A stretch of DNA of 60,784 nt from Candidatus Micrarchaeota archaeon (GCA_043803465.1 JAZDKC010000074.1:1-60784); one strand, 5' to 3'. Positions 2-56,081 are shown, counted from the stretch's first letter. A program made the numbers and translations. The notes: generated by a model not told the origin, from the sequence alone.

Positions 2-481
2 TTAGCCCAGCTGCACAGTTTCAATCCCCGCCTGCTCGAACAGCTCCTTCGTGAATTCGAACTCTTCCCGGTATTCCTCCCTATAATATAGTTCGCGGTA
101 AACTATTCGCTCGATACCCAGATTAGCCAGGATTTTGGCGCAGATTAAGCAGGGGAATGCAGTGGAATAGAGCGTCGCACCATTTACATTGATCCCATTT
201 CTCGCAGCAGAGATAATCGCATTCTGCTCTGCATGGATTGTCCGCACGCAATGGCCATGAATGAGCTTGCAGCCCGCTTCCGTGCAATGTGGCAGCCCCC
301 TTGCAGAGCCATTGTAGCCTGTTGCGAGCATGAAATGATCCCTTGCAAGGAGCGCACCGAATTTCCGCCTGTTGCAGGTTGCACGGGTCGCTATGGCGTC
401 AACCAATCTCATGAAATAGTGGTCCCAAGATTCGCGCGGCTCGTGCTTTTGCCCTTCCATGCGAACATTCTTTTCTGCCAT
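2..481 (-). CDS. dCMP deaminase (ComEB family)
   Basis: Zn motifs HAEQNA and PCLIC, plus ATC.RR..GA and TGYNG. Confidence 0.9.
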   Translation of the reverse strand: MAEKNVRMEGQKHEPRESWDHYFMRLVDAIATRATCNRRKFGALLARDHFMLATGYNGSARGLPHCTEAGCKLIHGHCVRTIHAEQNAIISAARNGINVNGATLYSTAFPCLICAKILANLGIERIVYRELYYREEYREEFEFTKELFEQAGIETVQLG

Positions 482-583
482 TTCAACCCACCCTCAATAA
501 ATAATATTGGCGGAATAGTAGGCGCGGGCACCATTAATAATGATTTTGGTAAAAACGGCCGCCCAACTACCAGCCCACGATTT

Positions 584-741
584 GACACATATAGGGGATG
601 ATCTAGAACCCCTTAGGTTCTAGTCATGCCAAGAAACTCTTGTTTCTTGAGCAACACATTTCCCCTGCTCGTGTTACGTAGGGCTCCACTCTACTAACAT
701 ACGAAGACATACGTCTTCGGCATGTCGCCTCCGCCCCTTTG
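584..741 (-). repeat. Long (158 nt) form of the GACAC/GTGTC hairpin element, directly after the kae1 stop
   Basis: Minus strand starts CAAAGGGGCGGAGGCGACATG, contains AACACGAGCAGGGG and several hairpins (CGAAGAC/GTCTTCG, CAAGAAAC/GTTTCTTG, CTAGAACC/GGTTCTAG), ends CCCCTATATGTGTC; followed by a copy of the kae1 3' end (567-583). Confidence 0.8.
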
Positions 742-1779
742 CTACCATCCAACGATTTCGGCATCAATCCTCGCCTTTTGGTTGTGCGAGGTGTCTTTCC
801 GATAGCAATTCGAGGCAAATTGGAGTGCGCCGGTTATTGTTATCATGCCCGCATTATCCCCCAATAATCCGAAGGGGGGGAAGCAACAGCCTATATCGTG
901 CTCCTTTGCCAATTCAATTGTCATCTCCTGCAACCGTTTATTCCGGTAATTCCCCCCGACTCCGATGATTTCCCTTTTTCTGGTCAAGGTGAGGGCACGT
1001 TCGGAAGCCTCAAGAAGCGCTGAGAACGCATATTCCTGCGCGGAATAGCAGATGTCGGAAATAGAATGCTTGGCAGGATTCAATTTTATTGCAGCTGTAA
1101 GCACACCGGAAAAGGATGCGTTCATCCCCTTGACGATATAGGGCAAATCGATGAGGTTTTTTCCATTAACCGCCTCGTTCATGACACCCACCGCATCAGG
1201 GGGCGAGAGCTGGAAATGCCTTCCAACGTGATCAAGAAAATTGCCCAATCCGATATCCAATGTTTCACCCAAAACCCGGTAATGCCTTTTCTTTTTCCCG
1301 TTTTCCAACACCATGATTTGCGTGTTCCCCCCTGAAACGTAAATAGCAAGCGGATCTTTGCAGCTGAAAAGGAAGCGCCCAATCTCGATGTGGGAAAGCG
1401 CATGGTTTACGGGCATTATGGGAATATTTTTTGAAACGGAGATGCTCTTTGCCGCAACATGGCCCAAATGGAGGCAATGCCCGATGCCCGGCCCGTAGGA
1501 ATAGCAAACAGCATCCAGATCCGAGAGCGTTATTTTAGCTTTTTCAAGGGTGGCATCCAAAATCCTATCAAAATTCTTCGCATGGAAATCAGCTAGCCTG
1601 CGGGGGATGAAGCCTTCCTTGAGGGAGGGGAACTTCATATCGGTTTCGGAAATGATTTTGGTGTTTTGCGGAGTAAGGGGGTGCGCCTTCGCTTTGCCCG
1701 CTGCTGAGAGGTCAACTTTGCTTTCAACAACTGCTGCGCCAAATGTATGTGCGGTACTTTCAAAACCAAGTATTAACAT
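742..1779 (-). CDS. kae1: tRNA t6A biosynthesis protein Kae1/TsaD
   Basis: ILGFESTAHT, GPG, NHALSHIE, YVSGGNTQ, GETLDIGLGN, DNAGMI; start moved to ATG 1779. Confidence 0.93.
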   Translation of the reverse strand: MLILGFESTAHTFGAAVVESKVDLSAAGKAKAHPLTPQNTKIISETDMKFPSLKEGFIPRRLADFHAKNFDRILDATLEKAKITLSDLDAVCYSYGPGIGHCLHLGHVAAKSISVSKNIPIMPVNHALSHIEIGRFLFSCKDPLAIYVSGGNTQIMVLENGKKKRHYRVLGETLDIGLGNFLDHVGRHFQLSPPDAVGVMNEAVNGKNLIDLPYIVKGMNASFSGVLTAAIKLNPAKHSISDICYSAQEYAFSALLEASERALTLTRKREIIGVGGNYRNKRLQEMTIELAKEHDIGCCFPPFGLLGDNAGMITITGALQFASNCYRKDTSHNQKARIDAEIVGW

Positions 1780-1823: not shown

Positions 1824-1875
1824 GGGGGGTGGGGGGATGCTAACACGGGCAGGGGCAAAGCCCCCGGGAGGTGTC
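1824..1875 (+). repeat. Hairpin element copy in the divergent kae1/DP1 promoter region
   Basis: G-tract..GCTAACACGGGCAGGGGCAAAGCCCCCGGGAGGTGTC, with TTTAATAAA-containing copies at 1802 and 1877. Confidence 0.8.
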
Positions 1876-1939: not shown

Positions 1940-3454
1940 GTGATAACCATGCCTATTGACAGGGCTCAAATTCTGCTCATGCTGAAGGAGAAGGAGCTGA
2001 TGGCATCCCCGGAGGCGTTGGACGCGCTAATCAATTCGGACAACCCCGAGGCGATAATTGGAGAGCTCGCAAAAAGGAATATCATTGTCGCTGATTTTGA
2101 GCAGGTGCACGACATCATTGAAAGCAGGGGGGTGGATGAGAAGGTCGTGCAGGTCGAGGTTCTGCAGGAAACGAGCTACAATCCTGCTGCAAAAGGCGTG
2201 GAGGCCAAGCTAAATCTGTCAATCCGGAACGATGTGACCGGAAAATCACGATGCACAGGCAGCGTGGATGATTTCGTGAGGTATTTCAATGACAGATACG
2301 ATAAGCATCGCAGGAGCCTGAGGGGGATGGCAACAAATGGAGGCGGGCTTTCAACCATTCGGGATGTGAAAAATTACCTCAAAAACAAGGAGGCGCGGAT
2401 CATCACGATGGTTTACGACAAGCGCATCACCAAAAACGGCCACCTGATGTTTGATGTTGAGGACGACCAAAGCACTGCAAGCGTATTGGTGCCGAAGGAC
2501 TCGCAGCTGTTCTACGAGGCATCGCAAATCCTCAATGACGAGGTGGTCGCATTCGATGTGTACCACTCGAACTCCTCGCTTCTTATCGCAAAGAATTTCG
2601 TGAGGCCCGGAAGGCTGCTTCAGGAGCGCACGAAAAAACTCATTGACGAGGATATTGGCATCGGCTTCCTTTCGGATTTGCATGTGGGCTCGAAATTCTT
2701 CATGCAGGAGAATTTCCAGAAATTCCTCGAGTTCATGAACGGGAAGGGCACTGCGGCGCAAAGGGAGGTCGCGGGCAAAATCAAATATTTATGCTTCGGA
2801 GGGGACAATGTGGACGGAATCGGCGTTTTTCCGGGGCAGGAAAAGCAGCTGGTCACAAAAGGGATCCATACGCAATACGAAATATTCTGCGAATTCATAA
2901 AGAACATCCCGGAGCATGTCGAGATAATCATTGCGCCCGGGAATCATGATGCGGTAAGGACTGCGGAGCCGCAGCCTGCGCTCCCGCAGGAGTTCTGGGA
3001 GGCACTGAAAGGCTATAGCAACGTTCATTTTGTCGGCAATCCATCCGCTCACAACGTGCATGGCTTGGAACTTTTGGTTTACCACGGCACTTCCCTTGAC
3101 GGGATAATTTCACACACGCAAATGTACAAGGACGGCTATATACATCCTGAAAAAGTCGCGGTAGGGCTTTTGCAAAGGAAGCACCTCGCCCCGCTTTACG
3201 GGGAGGATCCGTTGGTGCCAGAAGCGCACGATTTCATGGTGATAGAGGAAACGCCGGACATGTTCCATTTCGGGCATGTGCACAAGAATGGGCATATTGA
3301 GAATTACAATGGCACGTTGATTGTTAATTCGGGGACATGGCAGGATAGGACGGATTACCAGGTGAGGCTGGGGCACATGCCAACGCCATGCATCCTGCCG
3401 ATTTACAGCATGAAGAGCGGGAAGCTGCAGCACATTGATTTCAAGGGGGTATAA
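1940..3454 (+). CDS. polB: DNA polymerase D small subunit DP1 (proofreading exonuclease)
   Basis: OB fold plus phosphoesterase motifs SDLHVGS, GDNVDG, PGNHD, YHG, GHVH; adjacent to DP2. Confidence 0.95.
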   Translation: MITMPIDRAQILLMLKEKELMASPEALDALINSDNPEAIIGELAKRNIIVADFEQVHDIIESRGVDEKVVQVEVLQETSYNPAAKGVEAKLNLSIRNDVTGKSRCTGSVDDFVRYFNDRYDKHRRSLRGMATNGGGLSTIRDVKNYLKNKEARIITMVYDKRITKNGHLMFDVEDDQSTASVLVPKDSQLFYEASQILNDEVVAFDVYHSNSSLLIAKNFVRPGRLLQERTKKLIDEDIGIGFLSDLHVGSKFFMQENFQKFLEFMNGKGTAAQREVAGKIKYLCFGGDNVDGIGVFPGQEKQLVTKGIHTQYEIFCEFIKNIPEHVEIIIAPGNHDAVRTAEPQPALPQEFWEALKGYSNVHFVGNPSAHNVHGLELLVYHGTSLDGIISHTQMYKDGYIHPEKVAVGLLQRKHLAPLYGEDPLVPEAHDFMVIEETPDMFHFGHVHKNGHIENYNGTLIVNSGTWQDRTDYQVRLGHMPTPCILPIYSMKSGKLQHIDFKGV

Positions 3455-3642
3455 AAATGCAAAATCAGGGGGGTAGGCGGCAAAACGAGTGGGGAACCGA
3501 AGGTGCCCCGGAGGTGTCGAGCACATTGATTTCAAGAAGTTTTAATTTACGCAAAACGGGGAGGGGAGAGGCGACACGAGTGGGGAACCGCAGGTGCCCC
3601 GGAGGTGTCGAGCACATTGATTTCAAGGGGGTATAAAAATGC
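3429..3642 (+). repeat. Tandem array with 91-bp period: two hairpin elements (3468-3518, 3558-3609) and three copies of the DP1 3' end
   Basis: AGCACATTGATTTCAAG at 3429, 3520 and 3611; 32-bp identity between 3429-3460 and 3611-3642. Confidence 0.92.
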
Positions 3643-39799: not shown

Positions 39800-39842
39800 T
39801 TGATTTCGGATTTATTAGAGATATTTAATTTTAGGAACCCTT

Positions 39843-39886
39843 GACACCTAGGGAATACGAATCCCCCATCGTGTCGCCTTGCCCCC
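39843..39886 (-). repeat. Hairpin element after the phosphoesterase stop
   Basis: GGGGGCAAGGCGACACGATGGGGGATTCGTATTCCCTAGGTGTC, followed by a copy of the gene 3' end (39815-39842). Confidence 0.9.
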
Positions 39887-39888
39887 TC

Positions 39889-40677
39889 TTAGAGATATTT
39901 TATCTTTGGAAACTCCTTGACGCCGCCTTCCTCATCGATCACTGTTGGAACGAATTCATCGATGTTGCAATCCTTTAGGATCGGCGACACCAGATCGTTG
40001 TCATAATGGCCGGAAACAAGGTCCGTGCCAGATGCAAGCGGGGATAAGGAGGGGAGTACCAGCAGCTCCTTCCGGTTGAATTCGCCCCTAAGCGCGCAAT
40101 TGTATTTATGGGGCACATTTATCTCATCGCGCAGCGAAACAGCGGGGTGCACATGCCCGATCACAAGGGTTTTGTATTCCTTGAATTCCGGAATATCGCC
40201 GTATTCCTCCAATTTCTTGTGCCCGTGGACGAATAACACGCCCTTTTCGAAAAAATAGTCGTGCATTTTCAGGTTCTGGTTGCGCAATATCTTTTGCACG
40301 TAATTGTCATGGTTTCCGCGCACCAAAATCAGCTCGATTTCCCGCTTCTTGAAAAAATTAAGCAATTGCAGCACTTCATCCCATTCCTGCTGCAGCGGCT
40401 TTGAGAATTCGTGCTTGAGATCGCCGTTGATCAGGACGCGTTTTGCCTTGGTTCCCTTGAGCATCGCCTCAAGCCGTTCAATAATTATCGGGAATTGGGG
40501 GGCAGGCACCTCGATGCCGATATTATGAAGCACCGCCTCATGCCCCATCTGAATGTCGGAAACCGCAAGCAGCCCAAGCTCTTCGAAATAAACCCCGCTT
40601 TCCTTGAGGACCTTGATTTTTGCACCTTCCCTTTTTTTGAAGAAATTATCGATTCGAGAGCGCATATCCATTTTCAA
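39889..40677 (-). CDS. Lhr-associated metallophosphoesterase
   Basis: SDIQMG, NGDLKH, RGNHD, VHGH, GHVHP; downstream of lhr. Confidence 0.88.
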   Translation of the reverse strand: MKMDMRSRIDNFFKKREGAKIKVLKESGVYFEELGLLAVSDIQMGHEAVLHNIGIEVPAPQFPIIIERLEAMLKGTKAKRVLINGDLKHEFSKPLQQEWDEVLQLLNFFKKREIELILVRGNHDNYVQKILRNQNLKMHDYFFEKGVLFVHGHKKLEEYGDIPEFKEYKTLVIGHVHPAVSLRDEINVPHKYNCALRGEFNRKELLVLPSLSPLASGTDLVSGHYDNDLVSPILKDCNIDEFVPTVIDEEGGVKEFPKIKYL

Positions 40678-44912: not shown

Positions 44913-45168
44913 GCAACGCCTCCGGGGGACCGGTTGCCCCTACTCGTGTTGCCCCTACCCCTTCTGATTTTGAATACCTTTATAACCGGCAACTCCCAAA
45001 ACAATAACGCAGTCTTCCAGATAGCCGGGGAGCTAAGGGATTCGACACCCACAGGGGAATGGCTTCCCCTCCACGTGTCGCCGCCACCCCTTCCGATTTT
45101 GAATACATTTATAACCGGCAACTCCCAAAACAATAACGCAGTCTTCCAGATAGCCGGGGAGCTAAGGG
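44913..45168 (-). repeat. 129-bp period duplication: two hairpin elements (44913-44961, 45044-45090) plus a duplicated SRP promoter/5' end
   Basis: 83-bp repeats at 44957-45039 and 45086-45168, 2 mismatches. Confidence 0.92.
45108..45114 (+). promoter_or_regulatory. TATA box of the SRP RNA gene (duplicated at 44979)
   Basis: TTTATAA ~24 nt upstream of the predicted RNA 5' end. Confidence 0.7.
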
Positions 45169-55488: not shown

Positions 55489-55959
55489 ATGCGATGCCCG
55501 TACTGCACACATATGGAAACGAAGGTTCTCGATTCAAGGGATGCGGAGGACCTGGCGGTTACAAGGCGCAGAAGGGAGTGCGAAAAGTGTGAGAAGCGTT
55601 TCACAACATATGAGCGGGTGGAATTCCTGGACTTGGTTGTCAGGAAGAAGGATGGCAAGACCGAGCCCTTTGACCGAAAGAAGATTGAAACGGGAATGCT
55701 CAAGGCGTGCGAGAAGCGGCCAATAAGCCGGGAGAAGATCGAGGAGCTCGTGGATGAGATGGAGCGCGACATCCGCAAGAAGGAGGGCACAGAGATCCCA
55801 ACACAGGAGATTGGGGAGCTTGTTATAGAGAAGCTCAAGAAGCTCGACAAGGTCGCATACATCAGGTTCGCAAGCGTGTACCGTGAATTCACGGACCTGA
55901 ATGAGTTTGAATCGGAAATGAAGAAATTGCTCAAGAAGAGCGAAAGAGTGGAGAAATGA
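55489..55959 (+). CDS. nrdR: Transcriptional repressor NrdR
   Basis: MRCPYC..TKVLDSR..RRRECEKCEKRFTTYE, ATP cone, VAYIRFASVYREF. Confidence 0.95.
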   Translation: MRCPYCTHMETKVLDSRDAEDLAVTRRRRECEKCEKRFTTYERVEFLDLVVRKKDGKTEPFDRKKIETGMLKACEKRPISREKIEELVDEMERDIRKKEGTEIPTQEIGELVIEKLKKLDKVAYIRFASVYREFTDLNEFESEMKKLLKKSERVEK

Positions 55960-56081
55960 AATGGCAAATATGAAGGGGTAAGGCGACACGATAGGGGAAA
56001 CGTAGTTGCCCCTCAGGTGTCATGAAGAAATTGCTCAAGAAGAGCGAAAGAGTGGAGAAATGAAATGGCAAATATGAAGGG
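55918..56081 (+). repeat. Perfect 60-bp duplication of the nrdR 3' end around a hairpin element (55975-56021)
   Basis: 55918-55977 = 56022-56081; element GGGGTAAGGCGACACGATAGGGGAAACGTAGTTGCCCCTCAGGTGTC. Confidence 0.93.

Follow-up and report, generated by a model that had tools for sequence, protein, structure and literature searches.

Why should the end of a gene stand twice in a genome, once on each side of a short hairpin-forming sequence, with only silent differences between the two versions? The question is raised by a contig of a Candidatus Micrarchaeota archaeon (GCA_043803465.1, JAZDKC010000074.1:1-60784), whose 60,784 nucleotides (nt) we analysed as a whole and refer to as the window. 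Here, we show that at the kae1 gene of this window a palindromic element has been inserted 4 nt after the stop codon, with the terminal 17 nt of kae1 directly duplicated on its two sides. It is one of a family of elements that insert at many targets, duplicating 13–91 nt. The explanation that we favour, to which we assign a probability of about 0.5, is that the sequence at 584–737 is a non-coding, non-autonomous palindromic (hairpin) element whose target was duplicated on insertion, one of the two copies then being exchanged for the allele of a related lineage.

The kae1 end, the element and the second copy

The kae1 open reading frame (ORF) occupies 742–1,779 on the minus strand, and from a reading of the protein its product is predicted to be a tRNA t6A synthesis protein of the Kae1/OSGEP family. 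We placed its start at MLILGFEST, matching relatives; orthologues from the same genus show 71–76% identity and identical starting residues. On the minus strand, to which all features of this locus belong, the 3' terminus of the gene reads GAA ATC GTT GGA TGG TAG (742–759, with the stop codon at 742–744). The in-gene, or upstream, copy (U, AAATCGTTGGATGGTAG, 742–758) consists of the last four codons and the stop, plus 2 nt of the preceding codon. It is followed by a 4-nt spacer, CAAA (738–741), and then by a long, 154-nt member of the palindromic-repeat family (584–737), which has related copies recovered by BLAST and nhmmer and in a census by regular expressions, and which begins with GGGG and finishes with GTGTC (584–588). 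The downstream copy of the kae1 end (D, AAATCGTGGGCTGGTAG, 567–583) abuts this GTGTC with a gap of 0 nt. U and D are equal at 15 of 17 positions, and their two mismatches (GTT/GTG and GGA/GGC) are third-position and synonymous, so that both copies read I-V-G-W-stop; a further C/G difference one base upstream of D involves the last base of the GTGTC end and lies outside the repeat. The preliminary description of this DNA had reported exactly such a duplication with synonymous differences only, and in this respect it holds.

In the flank test, the 90 nt before and the 90 nt after each element were aligned locally, with a cut-off score of 12 against a 99th percentile of 11 among mismatched flank pairs. 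The kae1 flanks scored 12, and a chance origin of this repeat is unlikely. That both differences at kae1 are synonymous is weak evidence when taken alone (about 1/9 by chance), and the weight rests on the family-wide test described below. Five of six same-genus genomes (G001, G002, G003, G004, G006) have an element-free site at the 3' end of kae1, and the sixth (G005) has independently received another variant of the element, flanked by an exact duplication of 41 nt. Silent sites in the kae1 ends of these six genomes have diverged too far to show which copy is the original, and the 13 loci obtained from metagenome contigs in a search for closer relatives (best protein identity 71%) do not decide it either. 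The 98 nt that precede the core of the G005 element at kae1, comprising an extension and an arm, matched only their own site in G000, G001, G003 and G005, apart from a 23-nt match to the arm; G000 denotes the window's own genome. We found no ORF of at least 40 amino acids wholly inside 584–741. As a separate observation on the gene itself, the Kae1 proteins of G001, G003 and G005 (L045, L044, L043) have an in-frame variable loop of 26–28 residues where the window protein has 6. The resulting two-piece kae1 match in these genomes was considered as a candidate element and rejected, being a variable protein loop between conserved blocks.

The family unit is about 47 nt long and consists of a G-rich leader (GGGG..GGC), an outer stem (GACAC/GTGTC), a purine-rich 5 x 5 internal loop and an inner GGGG/CCCC stem with a variable loop. 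The kae1 member contains the same parts, namely the leader GGGG..GGCGAC, an outer stem ACAC/GTGT, the inner GGGG/CCCC stem and the GTGTC end, and a motif scan indicated that long copies of this kind are expanded 47-nt units. The sequence 584–737 folds far more stably than shuffled sequences, with z scores of -6.9 (plus strand) and -3.6 (minus strand) as RNA and of -5.7 as DNA. Across 85 distinct copies, aligned by a fit to the covariance model, which favours pairing, the stems were paired in 97.7% of cells and showed 129 double-sided changes compared with 33 +/- 9.9 in shuffles (0 of 500 reached the observed number). Mispairs in the stems were G:T in 8 and A:C in 6 of 926 cells, that is, without strand bias. 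Watson-Crick pairing appears to be maintained on both strands, and a DNA palindrome fits these stems better than an RNA or guide scaffold made from one strand. A comparison with Rfam returned only a tRNA-Thr in the window at the gathering threshold, and nothing within 480–840 at E values up to 1.

Target duplication and silent differences across the family

The window's own genome (1.4 Mb, 91 contigs, 90.7% complete) holds related long copies on six other contigs, as recovered by BLAST and nhmmer. A covariance model, R1, built from 30 copies matched all 11 genomes of the archaeal family concerned (f1), with 56 matches in G000 and 47, 26, 26, 21, 18, 14, 11, 7, 5 and 4 in the others; among other families of the order, 3 of 57 genomes gave one weak match each. 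Exact matches to a 19-nt core in the species collection (n = 14) comprised 11 Candidatus Micrarchaeota records, one of Candidatus Norongarragalinales, one archaeal bin and one 2.4-kb contig of a bacterial bin. Five further exact core-motif matches, on viral contigs, lack the hairpin and were rejected as chance. The census of G000 by regular expressions yielded 63 elements, of which 49 were intergenic by crude gene calls; by the same calls, the orientation of elements relative to neighbouring genes followed no clear rule. A literature search, at the level of search listings and with supplementary files outside its scope, returned no account describing an element of this kind from Micrarchaeota or DPANN.

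Flank alignments reached a score of at least 12 for 24 of the 63 elements in G000. Duplications can be exact over 57 nt (55,918/56,022 in the window), 48 nt (contig C30) or, as mentioned, 41 nt. On contigs C23 and C43, near-identical elements each lie between copies of their own, unrelated target, and the duplication is therefore made at insertion; for near-identical relatives on C40 and C83, no flank duplication was found above threshold. The two ends of the element behave differently. Downstream, D begins 0 nt past GTGTC in 26 of 47 pairs and 1–8 nt past it in 14, the other 7 being mis-registered or spurious alignments. The opposite end is ragged, with 0 to about 36 nt between U and GGGG that form a nested truncation series of one A/T-rich arm. 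The spacer at 738–741 is probably the stump of this 5' arm, since the gaps between U and GGGG across the family are ever shorter ends of a common arm. Many duplications cross stop codons, spacers and the start of the next gene, or cover gene starts. Because neither the gene nor the region behind it is disrupted when the target is duplicated, elements can land on gene ends or starts without harm in a genome that is about 90% coding.

The differences between flank copies follow the codon structure. In 21 ungapped pairs from G000, 42 of 56 mismatches fell in the commonest codon phase of their pair (null 32.9 +/- 2.05, P ~1e-4). Pooling G000 with loci from relatives gave 159 distinct elements and 49 distinct ungapped pairs, 25 of which have at least two mismatches; in the best of six frames, these 25 pairs showed 102 synonymous and 19 nonsynonymous codon differences. 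Choosing frames by the length of neighbouring ORFs mis-assigned small genes, and the best of six frames with a matched null was used instead: the substitutions of each pair were moved to random sites of the same base, and the best frame was likewise taken, in 2000 runs. The observed excess of synonymous over nonsynonymous differences was 83, compared with -2.5 +/- 6.3 and a maximum of 24 under the null, so that 0 of 2000 runs reached it. The ratio of silent to replacement changes was 5.4, against about 0.7 by our own estimate for a freely drifting fossil copy. The random spread over codon positions that the preliminary description had named as the outcome speaking against its view is not what we found across loci, the mismatches being 3-periodic.

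Individual loci illustrate the pattern. Within 21 codons, the end of a zinc-ribbon protein gene on C60 has 10 silent changes and 2 replacements, a gene start on C42 has ATG replaced by GTG together with five silently changed codons, and a pair on C76, on the opposite strand, encodes one serine by AGC in one copy and by TCC in the other. In the two most contiguous assemblies, synonymous to nonsynonymous counts were 4:0 (L101), 7:0 (L141) and 5:0 (L147). A gapped pair on C57 has only silent changes in its coding part, with the insertions and deletions placed after the stop codon. These observations suggest that the flank copies are two alleles, each under protein-coding selection, and not the decay of a fossil. 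Both copies, as already proposed in the preliminary description, would once have been working gene ends, because of the large synonymous excess and its absence from every simulation. If they diverged silently while each served as a gene end, the divergence would have taken place in different lineages.

The most elaborate case lies at the end of a secretion-type ATPase gene in G003, where five intact versions of the last 11–17 codons are stacked with four elements between them. The same gene end carries one element in G002 and none in G000, G004, G005 and G006. The copy in G002 starts at a codon shared with G003, and the copies in three successive G003 units and in the G002 unit begin at exactly one codon. 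By hand count, the five G003 versions differ from each other and from the closest species, G005, by 10–15 of 54 nt, mostly silently.

Modules, arms and other members in the window

The long kae1 member contains two extra modules on the minus strand. Module A (672–719) forms two hairpins (702–719 and 672–699) within the 5' strand of the outer stem; it is also present on contigs C40, C42, C18, C25 and C61, and its alignment shows compensatory stem changes among copies. Module B (600–653), likewise with two hairpins (627–653 and 600–626), sits in the apical loop of the GGGG/CCCC stem and is common to C42, C60, G003:C31 and G001:C33. The module B hairpins also occur in a different, G/C-flanked context at G000:C60:7652-7778 and at L049 (G001:C33), the copy in G001 having a direct duplication of about 50 nt on its flanks. 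In this G/C-flanked context, module B may represent a second, related element family.

An arm of about 21 nt before GGGG (for example L112, G000:C28 just before 3382, and 3537–3557 in the window) reads L-I-R-x-x-N-stop. An arm copy checked by eye has stops in three frames, and arm variants retain a 6-bp hairpin by paired changes; the arm may end translation when an element lands in a reading frame. We considered the arm as the C-terminus of an element-borne protein and rejected this candidate: the 13 listed copies of arm plus GGGG in a six-frame scan of G000 have unrelated upstream sequences and no upstream open frame longer than 44 amino acids. With no shared upstream frame, the arm is therefore part of the element.

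Besides the kae1 member, the window holds several others. A minimal member (1,831–1,875, plus strand; 38.9 bits with R1) lies between the divergent genes for kae1 and the small subunit of DNA polymerase D (PolD), and its 13-nt flank repeat scores 10.5, below threshold. In this spacer (1,802–1,889), the member is flanked by two near-identical A/T-rich 13-mers, TTTAATAAA.TTC, which may represent TATA boxes, one per divergent gene, given their resemblance to such boxes. Behind the PolD small-subunit stop codon, a decayed member (3,471–3,518, plus strand; 36.8 bits) and a member with an arm (3,562–3,609, plus strand; 52.3 bits) are sister copies, since their loops differ by one base. The first copy of the PolD small-subunit end (3,429–3,460, plus strand; 32 nt) includes the stop codon and the ATG of the PolD large subunit; the third copy (3,611–3,642) equals it exactly over 32 nt, and the second (3,520–3,536) over 17 nt. 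Because the outer copies span both the stop and the next ATG, the duplication preserves both PolD genes. The preliminary description had added a phosphoesterase locus, which corresponds to this PolD small-subunit gene, to kae1 and counted five of five substitutions as synonymous. We could not reproduce this count, as the outer PolD copies are identical and the middle copy, after its 17 identical nt, has AAG TTT for GGG GTA, a nonsynonymous change that arises because this stretch is the A/T-rich arm of the element.

A member at 39,843–39,886 (minus strand) has flank copies at 39,889–39,911 and 39,815–39,837 that both read P-K-I-K-Y-L-stop with 3 synonymous differences. Two members on the minus strand (45,044–45,090 and 44,915–44,961, together within 44,915–45,090) accompany a 78-nt flank duplication (45,091–45,168 and 44,962–45,039) with 2 mismatches, and a member at 55,975–56,021 (plus strand) has the exact 57-nt duplication already noted (55,918–55,974 and 56,022–56,078). 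Elsewhere in G000, whole and decayed elements are clustered, in tandem or nested, at C73:4074-4650, C28:3382-3700, C25:14243-14389, C90:7534-7650 and C21:1447-1614, and such clusters may be insertion hot spots. At G000:C17:8729-9427, the genome's sole IS4-type DDE transposase gene has a family member at its 3' end and a gapped duplication of that gene end. The gene 3' of kae1 (2–481, minus strand) is one that we take to encode a dCMP/cytidine deaminase-like protein from its zinc motif; the order of kae1 and this putative deaminase gene is conserved in G001, G002, G003 and G004.

Origin and meaning of the second copies

We propose that the element is copied into a staggered break, with synthesis from an RNA or DNA template primed by the target at the GTGTC end. 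Such target-primed synthesis is suggested because one end is exact, the other is truncated, and the duplication varies in length. During or after insertion, one flank copy would be replaced by the allele of a related lineage, for which two routes are conceivable. An occupied site could pass to a relative by break repair, the invading end copying the element and annealing through the repeat, which would leave one resident and one donor copy, or add an extra unit where the site was already occupied. Alternatively, separate allelic replacements could take place on either side of the element, which would act as a barrier of non-homology. At kae1, it is plausible that the in-gene copy is the incomer and the downstream copy the displaced original.

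Profile searches for an enzyme that might perform the insertion gave no match in G000 to TnpB (PF07282, PF01385; controls positive in 8 of 14 genomes), to Y1/RAYT-type transposase (PF01797; controls positive in 6 of 14 genomes), to Cas1 (PF01867) or to tyrosine integrase/recombinase (PF00589), Xer-type included. The reverse transcriptase profile PF00078 also had no match in G000, other reverse transcriptase families not having been searched, and Prim-Pol was found in 0 of the 11 family genomes. The single DDE_Tnp_1 gene of G000 (IS4-type, on C17) was rejected as the mover, its family being missing in G001, G002, G005 and G009, which hold 14–26 elements each.

Several known systems share part of this picture. 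Repetitive extragenic palindromic (REP) sequences and REPINs of bacteria are likewise short, G+C-rich imperfect palindromes, present in tens of copies, mostly intergenic and long kept within one host clade. They differ in having a RAYT partner, of which none was found in G000, and the archaeal elements have 13–91 nt duplications, an unpaired 11-nt leader and an optional arm; we know of no report that REPs make target duplications. Short and long interspersed elements (SINEs and LINEs), which use target-primed reverse transcription, share the precise 3' end, the nested 5' truncations, the variable and often long duplications and the short matches at the 5' junction. They differ in their dependence on reverse transcriptase, for which the one profile searched was negative, while the archaeal element has no A-rich or other tail and resides in prokaryotic hosts; to our knowledge, only group II introns use target-primed reverse transcription in prokaryotes. 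The TnpB-omega RNA arrangement of IS200/IS605 also presents a structured non-coding end followed by target-matching sequence, but TnpB and TnpA were not found in G000, and here the repeat length varies, the stems resemble a DNA palindrome and 24 of 63 elements have duplications, whereas IS200/IS605 elements, which insert next to a short fixed motif, make no target duplication as far as we know. Archaeal elements whose integration rebuilds the 3' end of the target gene likewise leave displaced gene ends in series downstream, one per integration. Such elements need a tyrosine integrase and one fixed att site, usually a tRNA gene; for these and for casposons, whose duplications measure 14–15 bp, the integrase and Cas1 profiles had no match in G000, and the present family has dozens of targets and variable duplication lengths. 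A miniature inverted-repeat derivative of a DDE transposon does not describe the element, whose GTGTC partner lies 11 nt inside the other end and whose duplications are not of fixed length. Nor does a diversity-generating retroelement, given that the differences (T/G and A/C at kae1; T/C, A/G and G/T in G002) are not confined to template adenines and that PF00078 was not found.

The closest parallel to the duplicated gene ends comes from fungal mitochondria, where endonuclease ORFs (in atp6, atp9, cox2 and nad3 of Glomus and in atp6 of Allomyces) bring along a gene C-terminus of foreign origin that takes the place of the native one. According to the published account of these insertions, the gene end is found on both sides of the insert without loss of an intact gene, and the copies, which differ much in DNA and little in protein, are read as a transfer from another lineage (PMC3630166). 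The fungal elements encode a LAGLIDADG or GIY-YIG endonuclease and measure about 1 kb, whereas the archaeal element has 47–154 nt without an ORF, and its duplications also occur at gene starts and in spacers. A close relative made it possible to recognise the native copy in the fungi, which could not be done at kae1.

The start codon shared by three G003 ATPase units and the G002 unit could also indicate that element and gene-end copy travel as a single mobile unit, for example a small circle or a transcript, that integrates by pairing with the resident end (Campbell-like or by annealing), the repeat being carried homology. Unit-after-unit arrays would be expected from repeated homology integration, and copies would differ as alleles do, but we consider this unlikely: the near-identical elements on C23 and C43, with duplications of their own at unrelated loci, indicate that the element travels with no gene end attached, many duplications cover stops, spacers, the start of the next gene or gene starts, and 17–60 nt at 75–90% identity are a poor substrate for ordinary recombination. 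A guide-RNA gene drive with rescue, as advanced in the preliminary description, would take the downstream copy as a 3' guide with which a nuclease cuts matching alleles, the occupied allele being silently recoded. The layout of scaffold followed by target copy and the silent differences agree with it, the in-gene mismatch would protect the occupied allele, and stacked alleles could mark successive rounds. We regard it as improbable nonetheless, and the nuclease part of that proposal found no support in the TnpB, Y1, reverse transcriptase, Cas1, tyrosine integrase and Rfam searches or in the stems, which lack a G:U excess. Many duplications are identical over 41–57 nt, and hence are not recoded as a drive requires and would be self-targeting. 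Silent differences are also found where the working copy is downstream or on the opposite strand (C42, C76), although escape mutations in a free copy should be random, and copy lengths of 13–91 nt are unlike a guide of fixed length.

It might also be that the copies diverged in place, with the spare copy itself under coding selection, for example if recombination between the repeats often removes the element so that either copy becomes the gene end. Direct repeats of 17–78 nt would permit such scarless loss, relatives have empty sites, and lineage-specific residues are kept in the downstream copies of G002 and G003. Selection after excision, however, acts on element-free lineages and cannot guard the spare copy where the element stays, and five intact copies in one G003 array would be hard to maintain, so that we give this idea a slim chance. 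At kae1 alone, the copy may be conserved while the gene drifts, an alternative already raised in the preliminary description. Finally, contigs might switch between co-assembled strains inside the conserved element, each strain having identical copies; all genomes are metagenome bins, and the element is near-identical between loci and species and could merge assembly paths. Several assemblies of independent origin, two of them in as few as 7 and 20 contigs, nevertheless show the pattern, five alleles with four different elements in one array are not explicable by one strand switch, and flanks 10–27% apart imply genomes that do not otherwise co-assemble. An artefact of this kind seems to us improbable.

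Several points weigh against our favoured reading of duplication followed by allele exchange. Recombination between sequences 10–27% apart is expected to be rare, the donor lineage has been identified for no locus, and kae1 itself offers only 2 differences. The five G003 ATPase copies share a Y at position 2 that is seen in 0 of 9 other family genomes compared, which would place any donors among close kin that have not been sampled. The profile searches in G000 yielded no insertion enzyme, and all genomes are metagenome assemblies. Moreover, the pairs in the silent-difference test were selected by our own regular expressions and a score cut-off, with gapped pairs excluded and 24 of 49 ungapped pairs dropped for having 0 or 1 mismatch. 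A bolder version, which we hold to be doubtful, is that a SINE-like hairpin is copied into staggered breaks by a target-primed polymerase activity and spread between related species by homing-type repair, leaving displaced but readable gene ends as a protein-free 'drive with rescue'. If this were true, the array of five ATPase ends in G003 would preserve, in fossil form, one allele replacement after another.

DPANN archaea with small genomes are generally regarded as poor in mobile elements; in the archaeal family described here, a hairpin element reaches 56 or more copies in a genome of 1.4 Mb. No transposition route known from prokaryotes accounts for the insertion signature, in which duplications are long and variable and one end is precise, the other truncated. 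The insertion enzyme, if found, could reveal a new way of moving DNA. For annotation, duplicated ends could be mistaken for small ORFs or frameshifts. Arrays of gene ends would preserve past alleles, a rare type of record, and the silent-only flank differences would be sequence evidence that related uncultured lineages exchange pieces of essential genes, the genes concerned being kae1, DNA polymerase D, the secretion-type ATPase and small zinc-ribbon proteins.

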